Below are positions 35,907 through 38,262 of a DNA stretch of 64,000 bases, piece by piece. This DNA is from Prochlorococcus sp. AG-679-M23 (GTDB taxonomy: Bacteria; Cyanobacteriota; Cyanobacteriia; PCC-6307; Cyanobiaceae). The DNA lies in assembly GCA_003208875.1 (NCBI GenBank), contig QCUR01000001.1, forward strand, positions 224,001 through 288,000, in the 5' to 3' direction. The notes beneath the pieces were generated by a model. It was not told where the DNA came from. It saw only the letters and a program-made list of their open reading frames with translations, and did no database searches. Positions within the stretch are counted from its first letter, which is position 1, and every line of letters begins with the position of its first letter. The translations under genes and the position numbers were made by a program.

Positions 35907-36524
35907 ATGAAATATGATATTGATCATGAATTTGTCGGGATTAGTTCTCAAACCGCAACTCATAGAATAATTTTGCTACATGGCTGGGGAGCCGATGCAG
36001 ATGACCTTTTAACACTTGGAAAGGAGATTATAGAAAAAATAAATCTTGATTTTGAGGTAATTTCTTTGAGGGCTTCTGGATTACATCCAAGTGGTCAGGG
36101 AAGACAGTGGTATCAACTATACCCTCATGATTGGGAGGGGGCTGAGGTTGAAGTAAATAAACTTTTAGGTACATTAAAAAAATTTGATAATGATCAGATT
36201 TCAATAGGAAAAACAATTTTGTTGGGTTTTTCTCAGGGTGCAGCTATGGCAATTGATGCAGGATCTAAATTAAAATTAGGTCTAATTGTTGCTTGTAGTG
36301 GTTATCCCCACCCAAACTGGGCTCCAGGAGAAAAATACCCACCATTAATTGTTAGTCATGGTTTGTTTGATGACGTGGTGCCTATAGATGCTTCAAGAAT
36401 TATTCATGAAACGGTAAAAAATAAGTCTTCTAAATTTTGCGAATTAATAGAATTTAATGGATCCCATCAAATTGATCCAAATTTAATTGATTTTATAAGT
36501 TCAAATATAAATAATATTTTTTAA
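35907..36524 (+). CDS. Alpha/beta hydrolase (phospholipase/carboxylesterase family)
   Basis: LHGWG, GFSQG nucleophile elbow, HG..D.VV, G.H. Confidence 0.88.
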   Translation: MKYDIDHEFVGISSQTATHRIILLHGWGADADDLLTLGKEIIEKINLDFEVISLRASGLHPSGQGRQWYQLYPHDWEGAEVEVNKLLGTLKKFDNDQISIGKTILLGFSQGAAMAIDAGSKLKLGLIVACSGYPHPNWAPGEKYPPLIVSHGLFDDVVPIDASRIIHETVKNKSSKFCELIEFNGSHQIDPNLIDFISSNINNIF

Positions 36525-36889
36525 ACGAAAGCATATTCGTATTCTTCAATCTCTTCCCAATCATCTGCAGTAAGTTCTAGACCCTCAAATATTTTTTCTT
36601 CACCAATTCCCTCAACTACGACTTTTAGAGATGGAAATAGAAAATGATTTTCTTCAGCATATTGGGCGCTAAATAAACCTTTTTCACCCCAAAAAAACCT
36701 ATCAGTGGTATGTTCATTTCTTCGAACATTGAAAACTGAAGGGGCACACAAAGCATTTTCAGCTATAAATCTTCTTGCAGCTGTAACTGGTTTATGTTTG
36801 CCAGTTTCGATATGATAAATAGGTACATGTGCCATTACTCTTTGGCCAGCCAACCTTCTTCTGCTGATTCTTTTTCTCTTTTTTGACAT
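36521..36889 (-). CDS. DUF3155-like conserved cyanobacterial protein
   Basis: KPVTAARRFI, RNEHTTDRFFWGEKGLFSAQYAEENHFLFPSL; AGGAG Shine-Dalgarno at 36903-36899. Confidence 0.85.
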   Translation of the reverse strand: MSKKRKRISRRRLAGQRVMAHVPIYHIETGKHKPVTAARRFIAENALCAPSVFNVRRNEHTTDRFFWGEKGLFSAQYAEENHFLFPSLKVVVEGIGEEKIFEGLELTADDWEEIEEYEYAFV

Positions 36890-36979
36890 TGATTGGTACT
36901 CCTAGAATTATTAATGAGATTAGTCTTATTAATTGTTACTAATCTTATATCTGTGATTTTGAATTCACTTAAATTACAT

Positions 36980-37057
36980 AGAGGACCCATCAACCCCTGA
37001 TGTAGCTTAAAATATGATTAAATGTTCATATTTAAGGCTGGCTAAAGTCAGACCTCT
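36980..37057 (-). ncRNA. Candidate structured 5' leader RNA of the DUF3155-like gene
   Basis: Nested inverted repeats beginning at the predicted transcription start (see findings). Confidence 0.5.
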
Positions 37058-37063
37058 TTATAT

Positions 37064-37091
37064 ATCTTAATACTTTTTTCATATTTTACAA
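37064..37091 (-). promoter_or_regulatory. Sigma70-type promoter for the DUF3155-like transcript
   Basis: TTGTAA (37091-37086), 16-nt spacer, TAAGAT (37069-37064). Confidence 0.5.
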
Positions 37092-37125
37092 GTCCTTTTT
37101 CAGATTTTTTTTAATTTCACTGATT

Positions 37126-38262
37126 ATGAAGCTCTCAAAAAAATTTGAAGAATTAATCATAAAACAGCTAGAGAGCTTTGGTTGCTCAATGGGAGTGACT
37201 CATTTGGTTATGTATCTTGCTTCAACGGAGCAAGGAACTAAAGCATCTTTTGAAATGATTGGTCAATGGCCACAAATTGATAGGCTTCTGATATCAGTAG
37301 AAGATGATCCTTCCCTAAAAGTTTCTTCTCCTAATAGAAGATGGTACCCGCTTCAAGAAAACGATATCCTACTTGGTGTTCTTAGGGTAGAAACTGATTT
37401 TAAAGAAGGGTATTGGCCAGGATCTCTTGACTCTAGATTAAAAGCACTTTCACTATCTTTAGCTAAATGCGTTTCTATCGAATTAGAACGTCAAAATAAA
37501 AATGAAGAAATTAATTATTTAAAAAATCAGGTCAATGTCATAATCCATCAATTGAGGAATCCATTGGCTGCTCTTAGGACATATGCAAAATTACTAATAA
37601 AAAGACTTGGTTCAGATGATGACTCTATTGAAATAGTCGAACGAATGATAACAGAGCAAAAACAAATTAATAATTATATGGACTCTTTTGCGCAATTAAA
37701 TTCAGCTATTCAACTTCCTCTAGAAATTGGAGAGGAAAGATTATTATTACCACCAAATTTAGATAACAAAAAGCTTATAACTGTTCAGAGTTTATTGAGG
37801 CCAATTTTGGAAAGGGGCCAAGCTAATGCGAAGTTAGAGAATAGAGATTGGACGGAACCTTCTCTTTGGCCAGATTGGACTTTAGCGCCATTAAAGGTTA
37901 AATATGCTGTAATTGCTGAAATTGTGGCTAATCTATTAGAAAATGCGTTTAAATACGCCCAAAAAGATGCTGAGATTGGACTCACCATTATGAGTAAAGG
38001 TCTGTGCATATTTGATGATGGTAAAAAAATAACCAAAATTGAAAATGAGAAAATTTTTCAAAAAGGCTTTCGAGGATCTGCGGCTAAGAAGAAGGATGGT
38101 ACTGGTGTTGGACTTTTTTTAGCGAGGAAATTAGCAAAACAAATTGGAGGAGAGTTAAGATTGCTTGAAAACTCCTCAATTAATGATGTAAAGGAATTAA
38201 AAAGTCTTAAGAAGAAGAATATTTTCTATTTAGAACTTCCTATAAAAGAATTGCATTCATAA
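37126..38262 (+). CDS. Soluble sensor histidine kinase, Hik2/CSK-like
   Basis: GAF-like N-terminus (YPL....LLGVL), H-box HQLRNPL, N-box NLLENAFKY, IFQKGFRG, GTGVGL; no TM segments. Confidence 0.85.
   Translation: MKLSKKFEELIIKQLESFGCSMGVTHLVMYLASTEQGTKASFEMIGQWPQIDRLLISVEDDPSLKVSSPNRRWYPLQENDILLGVLRVETDFKEGYWPGSLDSRLKALSLSLAKCVSIELERQNKNEEINYLKNQVNVIIHQLRNPLAALRTYAKLLIKRLGSDDDSIEIVERMITEQKQINNYMDSFAQLNSAIQLPLEIGEERLLLPPNLDNKKLITVQSLLRPILERGQANAKLENRDWTEPSLWPDWTLAPLKVKYAVIAEIVANLLENAFKYAQKDAEIGLTIMSKGLCIFDDGKKITKIENEKIFQKGFRGSAAKKKDGTGVGLFLARKLAKQIGGELRLLENSSINDVKELKSLKKKNIFYLELPIKELHS

Follow-up and report, generated by a model that had tools for sequence, protein, structure and literature searches.

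A conserved structured 5′ leader of the DUF3155 messenger RNA in picocyanobacteria

Background

Prochlorococcus and marine Synechococcus possess few protein regulators and rely heavily on control at the RNA level. The described systems closest to the element treated here are the autoregulatory leaders of genes for RNA-binding proteins (the L10, S15 and L20 leaders and the cyanobacterial S1 leader motif), the orphan cyanobacterial RNA motifs Cyano-1 and Cyano-2, both of them Rfam families, and the 5′-terminal stabiliser hairpins of abundant messenger RNAs (mRNAs), for example in the ompA 5′ untranslated region (5′-UTR) of Escherichia coli. In this study we analysed the 5′ leader of the DUF3155 gene in a stretch of 64,000 nucleotides (nt) of Prochlorococcus sp. 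AG-679-M23 (contig QCUR01000001.1, positions 224,001 to 288,000), which is called the window and whose own numbering is used throughout. An original prediction from the sequence alone had proposed a long, folded leader at this place. It is a conserved structured mRNA leader, with a core of two hairpins, P3 and P4, joined by a linker; the mechanism that we describe for it is a candidate and our best guess.

Part of this has been published before, as a UTR without a name but with a mapped start. For Prochlorococcus MED4, Table S2 of Steglich 2008 (PLoS Genet) contains a '5′UTR of PMM0268' at complement(258570..258772) and the PMM0268 gene at complement(258236..258604). The 5′ end 'taagatatataaA' was found in 3/3 clones by rapid amplification of cDNA ends (RACE), a microarray signal was obtained too, and the 3′ end is entered as 'NT'. 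By gene order, gene and leader length, and identical sequence at the 5′ ends of both this transcript and the antisense RNA asMED4_02731, this is the same locus as ours. The MED4 entry lists the UTR by microarray and RACE only, without structure, family comparison or function, and the window belongs to another genome. In Table 1 of Axmann 2005, an element between sensor kinase and conserved hypothetical genes is marked '-' where the confirmed Yfr RNAs have '+'; its identity with our locus could not be confirmed. A text search of the literature found 'PMM0268' in no main text and 'DUF3155' in one paper, on an unannotated open reading frame (ORF), and neither term led to a description of the leader. 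There was also nothing on the locus in the searched passages of Lott 2020 or in the supplements of the Red Sea mdRNA-seq paper and of Axmann 2005. The P3-linker-P4 architecture, its distribution in the family and its absence from Rfam were thus not found described in the searchable literature.

As an explanation we tentatively favour, at somewhat less than an even chance, a cis-acting structured leader of the DUF3155 mRNA, transcribed from a distal promoter, that docks a trans-acting factor which sets stability or translation.

Results

A distal promoter kept across the family

The pairings, promoter and AGGAG named in the original prediction are all present in the window. The promoter consists of the hexamers TTGTAA and TAAGAT on the minus strand with a 16-nt spacer between them, and the predicted start is the A seven bases on (coordinates are collected in Table 1). 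Both are corroborated by the RACE data for the orthologue (Steglich 2008, Table S2). The gene (369 nt) and the leader (168 nt, from 37057 to the ATG at 36889) have the same lengths as there and the window carries a string identical to the published 5′ end, ending at 37057; the start was therefore placed at this position. With regard to the spacing of the hexamers and the experimentally mapped 5′ end of the orthologue, this is a sigma-70-type promoter. A consensus promoter scan missed it, since it has 8/12 hexamer matches and the cut-off was 9.

For comparison, the gene and 700 nt upstream were taken from 40 genomes of other genera, and 30 loci form the same-genus set. In 69/70 loci the promoter can be recognised together with its spacer (consensus CTTGAAAAATCNGRAAAAAGTMTTAAGAT), in 66 of them by regular expression and in three (L039, L056, L057) by hand; L065 is the sole locus among the 70 in which it was not found. 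From AT-rich to GC-rich genomes the spacer is kept with it (GAAAAAGT[A/C]TTAAGAT), and the DNA directly upstream of the -35 hexamer is variable among loci.

A second, proximal start is on record. The differential RNA sequencing (dRNA-seq) tables of Read 2017 give a start at 258616(-), '12nt upstream of gene PMM0268', as well as internal starts, and a distal start is not among them. A short, nearly leaderless DUF3155 mRNA without the structured leader therefore also exists. As to the view of the original prediction that a start downstream of 36980 would speak against the long leader, such a start is what the dRNA-seq data contain, whereas RACE and the conservation of the promoter back the distal one. 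In the window, AATAAT is located at 36912-36907 (-), ahead of the proximal start at ~36901. In GC-rich relatives no obvious second promoter was seen by eye before the ATG, and the gene is for this reason probably read from the distal promoter there.

The conservation of the promoter exceeds the needs of a -35 and a -10 hexamer. On its other strand, TTTTCCAGAT and TTTTCAAG form a direct repeat with a period of 10 nt, possibly a site for a response regulator. A regulon sharing this promoter was considered and rejected: the genome itself contains one exact copy, and seven with two mismatches compared with four for a backwards control.

Selection on the leader and its conserved core

Within the genus, the leader has a mean column identity of 91% (30 loci). 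In 29 comparisons, identity to the window locus is 96.4% in the first 83 columns, which extend from the start through the end of P4, 90.3% in the remaining leader and 84.0% at the adjacent gene's third codon positions. Among the three most divergent loci of the genus (L002, L008, L029), the first 83 columns retain 83-86%, compared with 59-64% at third codon positions. Judged by these identities, the leader is under selection.

In the other genera the promoter is followed, in this order, by the 5′ end, which is (U)AUCGACC in most non-Prochlorococcus-like genera, a variable hairpin, P3, the linker CAARGCUA and P4. Here, P3 has the form GGUUGCA-loop-UGCxACC and P4 the form CAGCAGAGG-loop-CCUCUGCUG. 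Linker and P4 make up the most conserved block, GCUACAGCAGAGG in other genera, which is found in 67/70 loci with up to four mismatches. The P3 of the window's genus is an A/U helix, AAAUAUGA/UCAUAUUU, unrelated in sequence and located at the same place. P3 contains a purine-rich internal loop, the linker nucleotides are near-invariant and unpaired, and the P4 loop is not conserved in Cyanobium-like genera. What the original prediction had described as an inner arm, AGCCTTAAATATGA (37039-37026) and TCATATTTTAAGCT (37017-37004) with 12/14 positions pairing, turned out to be the hairpin P3 with its outer AGC/GCU pairs, and it occurs throughout the family.

When 19 sequences were aligned with MAFFT as an ungapped seed, pairing was seen in 76.0% of the P3+P4 cells, compared with 32.7-48.5% after the partners had been slid; changes on both sides occur in five pairs, and the covariation score was reached by 0/500 shuffles. 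A 42-row alignment gave 78.1% against 33.1-52.9%, 13/18 pairs with changes on both sides and a covariation score of 0.261 against at most 0.120; it was fitted to the structure by the model and is hence biased towards P3+P4. All eight pairs of the P3 inner helix change on both sides family-wide. The outer AGC/GCU pairs are formed in 73%, one of the three changes on both sides, and the changes are mostly one-sided. As for P4, 99.6% of cells pair in the 30 same-genus loci, and 5/10 pairs change on both sides family-wide. RNAalifold gave no structure for all 49 sequences together, and group-wise folds were used instead. From this pattern of substitutions, P3 and P4 are taken to be conserved structured RNA, kept through compensatory changes in independent lineages. 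The part of the original prediction that called the leader long, conserved and folded stands, by the identity within the genus and by P3 and P4 across the family.

Some loci show further peculiarities. In L042 and L044 (G076, G106), P3, the linker and the 5′ strand of P4 are tandemly duplicated at ~55-125 of the leader. In the same two loci the AUG of the P4 loop is in frame with the gene, and in G076 the open frame comprises 192 amino acids (aa). In the window, the UUG AUG of the P4 loop opens a 52-aa ORF (36835-36993, minus strand) that runs over the DUF3155 start in a different reading frame; other genera do not conserve it as an ORF. An upstream ORF from the P4-loop AUG was rejected as an explanation, as Cyanobium-like loops lack this AUG and its reading frame with respect to the gene is not the same in all loci. 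Seven Cyanobium-like loci (L056, L060, L062, L063, L064, L069, L070) have a second conserved, GGUCGACAGAUGUAUGGGCGU-like block ~170-200 nt into the leader, which resembles the GAUG-containing P4 loops of other genera; the spacer is otherwise variable.

One copy per genome, in front of the DUF3155 gene

A covariance model of P3+P4 was built from the 19-sequence MAFFT alignment. Applied to 51 loci, it found 42 at E <= 0.001, all of them on the strand of the gene, and three more at E 0.01-0.04. At E <= 0.01 and with the stricter filters for large sets, it matches 104/151 family genomes in 27/36 genera. For 82 of the 107 listed matches the gene position is known: 79 are located 81-247 nt upstream on the same strand, and the remaining three, all weak (E 0.0015-0.0027), are at other places. 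The genome of the window has its one best match at the locus (19.9 bits, E 0.013), followed by one at E 0.96. These searches depict the element as one copy per genome, tied to the DUF3155 gene. It is also found with the gene in L056, L060 and L064, three loci in which the usual neighbour, the kinase, does not lie upstream. Among 121 genomes of the class, five had matches at E <= 0.001, four of them in the family and at the locus wherever the gene position is known. The one match outside the family, in G046, is not on the contig of the DUF3155 gene.

In each of two genomes of one genus, a second weak partial match (24 bits) occurs away from the locus (G161:C1:1293288-1293329 and G193:C24:22516-22557). 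L065 (G074) has a DUF3155 gene without conserved promoter, element or upstream kinase and is the sole such family genome examined; a search for P3+P4 elsewhere in G074 and in four other genomes gave no convincing copy (best E 0.038). Ten DUF3155 loci of other cyanobacterial families have a leader of ~60-70 nt with a conserved promoter of its own (AAGAAGTTGAAATTTT...GATATACT), and UGUAAC..GUUACA as a 5′ hairpin; TTG or GTG is the start codon in 10/10.

The original prediction did not recognise a named RNA family, and this agrees with the Rfam searches. Rfam 15 (4227 models) matched three transfer RNAs in the window and nothing near the locus, a permissive scan of 36400-37400 reached at best 21.3 bits with a threshold of 55, and for 20 orthologous loci of other genera there was no match at E <= 1. 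An orphan element for which Rfam holds no match, located upstream of one gene family and composed of several helices, a near-invariant unpaired linker and a purine-rich internal loop in P3, brings to mind a metabolite- or ion-sensing riboswitch with P3, linker and P4 as its aptamer. However, no conserved expression platform was found, neither a terminator nor a pairing with the ribosome-binding site (z <= -1.5 in 7/44 loci), the P4 loop varies between genera, and the regulated gene encodes a small basic protein that is neither enzyme nor transporter. We regard a riboswitch as very improbable.

Folding of the leader within the genus

The GC content is 0.378 in 37057-36976, 0.233 in the remaining leader, 0.176 in the 68 nt upstream of the start and 0.312 in the window. 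The 82-nt RNA 37057-36976 alone has a minimum free energy (MFE) of -21.3 kcal/mol, and its MFE structure is the one originally predicted, consisting of an outer helix AGAGG/CCUCU, UUAGCC/GGUUGA and the inner arm. The comparative P3/P4 fold of the same RNA has -17.3 kcal/mol, 4 kcal/mol above the MFE. As regards fold stability, the z-score is -2.14 for an 86-nt piece (5/200 shuffles equally good) and -1.54 for the 174-nt leader (14/200). Stability alone is weakly above chance; the leader rises above chance because of the comparison across loci and the published start site.

The segments of the outer helix (AGAGG 37057-37053, CCTCT 36984-36980) and of the pairing proposed between it and the inner arm (CTGA 37051-37048, TCAG 37000-36997) are present. 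However, the outer helix could not be upheld as a conserved closing helix. Its five pairs are invariant in the genus and hence uninformative, and beyond the genus the 5′ end AUCGACC cannot pair with CCUCU, which belongs to the conserved P4. The outer helix thus competes with P4 for CCUCU. The G-U alternative UUAGCC/GGUUGA fared no better, with 3/6 pairs lost in L002, L008 and L029 (by eye). Over the 30 loci of the genus, the comparative fold pairs 96.8% of cells and the outer-helix model 92.5%.

This competition could be the working principle of a genus-specific switch, as the original prediction had it, in which AGAGG and AGGGG contend for CCUCU and, when P4 is open, GUUGAUGGGUCCUCU pairs with AGGAGUACCAAUCAAU and covers ribosome-binding site and start codon. 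The outer-helix fold is the MFE structure of the 82-nt RNA, in the MFE structure of the whole leader AGGAG..AUCAAU is the partner of the P4 loop and of the 3′ strand of P4, the MFE folds of six same-genus representatives are evenly divided, three resembling the outer-helix model and three the comparative fold, and all segments involved are nearly invariant in 30 loci. But the invariance of the outer helix is itself uninformative, in four loci of the genus the duplex of P4 loop and ribosome-binding site did not surpass shuffles (z -0.1 to -1.9), L003 and L025 have lost ACC/GGU pairs through uncompensated changes (by eye), and the pairings are impossible in other genera, though P4 is conserved there. 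The comparative data give no support to an alternation confined to the genus, and we rate such a switch as rather unlikely. A docking site combined with a stabilising 5′ structure fits better than a self-contained switch, given the conserved core, the invariant linker, the variable spacer to the ribosome-binding site and the helix at the 5′ end.

Three further hairpins were seen in the genus. In the 5′ hairpin, 89% of cells pair and two pairs change on both sides (30 loci); it is not alignable beyond the genus and overlaps the presumed kinase promoter on the opposite strand. The second hairpin of the original prediction, AGATTAGT (36945-36938) with ACTAATCT (36924-36917), forms eight pairs and holds up in all 30 same-genus loci, with a change from U-A to U-G in four of them. 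A small GUGA/UCAC hairpin is the third (Table 1).

Pairings of the 5′ end AUCGACC with an inner GGUCGA, or with the P4 loop or a downstream GUUGAU, found no support (mean z -0.56 and -0.50; 7 and 9 of 41 loci below -1.5). GGTYGAY motifs are enriched, with 17 observed and 2.3 expected.

Table 1. Positions of the features of the DUF3155 locus in the window
Feature	Position	Strand	Basis or remark
-35 hexamer TTGTAA	37086..37091	-	kept family-wide with the whole spacer and the -10 hexamer; TTGAAA in most other genera
-10 hexamer TAAGAT, conserved spacer ...GAAAAAAGTAT before it	37064..37069	-	sequence and family conservation
Distal transcription start A	37057	-	string identical to the published 5′-RACE end of the orthologue
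5′ hairpin: GAGG (37056-37053)/CCUU (37037-34), CUGAC (37051-47)/GCCAG (37042-38), one A.C mismatch	37034..37056	-	RNAalifold, 9 same-genus loci
P3: inner helix AAAUAUGA (37033-26)/UCAUAUUU (37017-10), loop 37025-18, outer AGC (37039-37)/GCU (37006-04)	37004..37039	-	family-wide pairing
P4: ACAU (37003-00), bulged C 36999, AGGGG (36998-94), loop UUGAUGGGU (36993-85), CCUCU (36984-80), AUGU (36979-76)	36976..37003	-	family-wide pairing
Small hairpin GUGA/UCAC	36953..36968	-	99.2% of cells pair in 30 same-genus loci; 3/4 pairs never vary; weak evidence
8-bp hairpin AGAUUAGU/ACUAAUCU, loop variable in length and sequence	36917..36945	-	30/30 same-genus loci; genus-specific
AGGAG 36903-36899 and ATG 36889-36887	36887..36903	-	site equivalent to the published proximal start, ~36901, falls within AGGAG
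DUF3155 gene, 122 aa, basic N-terminus, acidic C-terminal tail	36521..36889	-	Pfam DUF3155, E 6.4e-45
Antisense promoter TATGAT (36811-36816), start G 36823, within coding sequence	36811..36823	+	string identical to published asMED4_02731
Divergent sensor histidine kinase	37126..38262	+	HisKA and HATPase_c domains

Leader or small RNA

A transcript of this kind might also be a small RNA, stand-alone or derived from the 5′-UTR, of ~85-125 nt, which ends or is cut after P4 and acts in trans by the P4 loop or the linker, while the mRNA comes mainly from proximal starts. It has its own promoter, strong-looking and very conserved; conservation stops at P4 and unconserved sequence follows; a run of U after P4 was seen by eye in L032-L036 and L040; and the orthologue's dRNA-seq start 12 nt before the ATG, with no distal one, suits an mRNA of its own. 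That other small RNAs of Prochlorococcus keep their neighbours is exemplified by yfr7 beside purK (Axmann 2005). On the other hand, most loci have no U tract after P4, and P4 as an intrinsic terminator was rejected, as the U tract is not consistent and nothing resembling a terminator came up on the minus strand when the window was scanned. In Table S2 of Steglich 2008, the transcript stands as a 5′UTR and bears no Yfr name. In addition, a second promoter is not evident by eye in the GC-rich relatives, and the P4 loop is not conserved in Cyanobium-like genera. A small RNA is in our judgement unlikely.

In public metatranscriptomes (4 runs from 4 studies), assembled contigs span gene and leader, one of them bridging 36759-37400. 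Such contigs cannot show starts, ends, strand or level and are neutral between a leader and a small RNA.

The divergent kinase and an antisense RNA

The kinase gene is divergent to the DUF3155 gene in 66/70 loci, with 68-95 nt between the DUF3155 start and the kinase ATG. What identifies the kinase, called Hik2-like in the original prediction, are its HisKA and HATPase_c domains. For the orthologue PMM0269, a transcription start at 258764 and an ATG at 258843 are listed (Wang 2014, supplement 3), and this start maps to ~37049(+) in the window, 8 nt inside the DNA of the leader. Because of this near-fixed spacing and the position of the kinase start, both genes share an overlapping back-to-back control region.

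The antisense RNA asMED4_02731 is given as 258538..258669 with the end 'tatgataaatagG' in 4/4 clones (Steglich 2008, Table S2), and its start, 258539(+), is also contained in the tables of Read 2017. Transferred to the window, it extends to at least ~36954 and spans the start codon, the AGGAG and the 8-bp hairpin. It could continue towards the kinase gene.

One could therefore ask whether the DNA is conserved rather than an RNA, as a compact bidirectional control region for the DUF3155 and kinase genes and, in the genus, for the antisense RNA as well, with hairpins that are incidental or belong to the other strand. Given where the kinase starts, its promoter has to overlap with the initial tens of leader bases, and the kinase is divergent at a near-fixed distance; no RNA partner was consistently found for the conserved 5′ end AUCGACC (mean z as above), the counts of G.U and A.C are about equal, and the antisense RNA extends from the coding sequence into the leader. 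Yet P3 and P4, located ~50-110 nt into the transcript, lie beyond any plausible kinase promoter, and their pairing survives changes on both sides, something that a DNA-binding site does not require. The three loci without an upstream kinase still carry the element, and the codon context of the antisense promoter is not common to the GC-rich relatives (by eye). Conservation at the level of DNA is thus, to our mind, decidedly unlikely to account for the element.

The DUF3155 protein

The DUF3155 gene is present in 201/201 family genomes, with 77-88% aa identity outside the genus among the matches listed. It was also found in 54/61 relatives and other cyanobacteria, and in 38/38 of those of good quality. 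In 33 sequences spanning the class, 45 columns of the protein are invariant. The picocyanobacteria have added an invariant acidic tail (..DDWEE[I/M]EEYEYAFV) and use an ATG start. In the supplements of Wang 2014, PMM0268 is labelled 'Core, HEG' and its neighbours 'VEG'.

In view of the basic N-terminus, a product that binds its own leader is an attractive idea. P3-linker-P4 would then serve as operator in a feedback loop that only picocyanobacteria have: as an RNA-binding protein, the DUF3155 product would dock on its own leader and set its own abundance, and the acidic tail and the switch from TTG to ATG would have co-evolved with the leader. We consider this improbable as it stands, if less so than the small RNA discussed above.

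Discussion

Proposed role of the leader

The reading that we prefer, that of a leader docking a trans-acting factor, can be described as follows. The DUF3155 mRNA leader would be transcribed from the distal promoter, which is kept across marine and related picocyanobacteria. Its core would be P3 and P4 with the near-invariant single-stranded linker, preceded by a lineage-specific 5′ hairpin and followed by a variable spacer of ~80-250 nt up to the start codon. We infer that the leader acts in cis, on the DUF3155 mRNA alone, and that its core docks a factor which sets the stability or translation of this abundant message. The factor would be a protein, possibly the Arg/Lys-rich DUF3155 product itself, and the 5′-terminal helix may also protect the end of the mRNA. 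The start site, placed by orthology to the RACE end, the selection on the sequence, the conservation of P3 and P4, the single copy tied to the gene and the absence of an Rfam match are observations, whereas cis action, binding of a factor and its effect would follow from them only by inference.

A number of observations weigh against this reading. The covariance model misses 6/51 loci (L031, L032, L034, L035, L058, L065) and 47/151 family genomes, and the 42-row alignment carries the bias mentioned above. In the helix cells, 69 G.U and 59 A.C were counted, and the pair counts do not tell which strand folds. The spacer from P4 to the ATG varies in length and sequence, and a conserved pairing between P4 loop and ribosome-binding site was rejected by RNAduplex against 200 shuffles, with z from -2.9 to +2.2 in 44 loci and 7 at <= -1.5. 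Since the dRNA-seq tables of Read 2017 give a proximal but no distal start, the long form may be a minor isoform under the conditions used there. With respect to the product as the binding factor, the window's genome has no second P3+P4-like site that could be mimicked better than E 0.96, a search that would miss a distant mimic. A sequence search of the PDB with the DUF3155 protein found no match, and for its AlphaFold model (predicted local distance difference test, pLDDT, 84) no clear solved relative was found (Foldseek best E 0.09, VIA best Z 5.4 over 46 residues). As there is neither a PDB match nor a clear fold match, nothing marks the DUF3155 product as RNA-binding.

Promoter and ~70-nt two-hairpin core are almost unchanged from AT-rich Prochlorococcus to GC-rich Cyanobium-like genomes, and the element precedes one of the most conserved cyanobacterial proteins of unknown function. 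It might thus serve as a handle on the role and the control of this protein, and it is a candidate entry for a catalogue of RNA families. Only proof of a ligand or of an autoregulatory loop would raise it above the rank of a catalogue entry.

Comparison with known systems

With the orphan cyanobacterial motifs and the Yfr RNAs (Axmann 2005), the DUF3155 element has in common that it is a structured non-coding element of marine picocyanobacteria, located beside one gene and provided with its own conserved promoter. Unlike them, it continues into an mRNA and has no known terminator end.

The autoregulatory leaders are unlike it in several respects: DUF3155 is not known as a ribosomal or RNA-binding protein, no mimicked site was found in the genome, the DUF3155 leader has no conserved overlap with the ribosome-binding site, and it matches none of the Rfam leader families. 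It resembles them in that the coding sequence of a small, very basic and abundant protein is preceded by a long, folded 5′-UTR, and in that the sequence of the hairpins matters besides their pairing.

The 5′-terminal stabilisers of the ompA type need no sequence-conserved P3, linker and P4 at 25-110 nt downstream, whereas these form the core of the DUF3155 leader. It is similar to them in carrying a helix 1-3 nt from the 5′ end, both in the window and in the MFE folds of many relatives, and in belonging to a gene that is labelled highly expressed.

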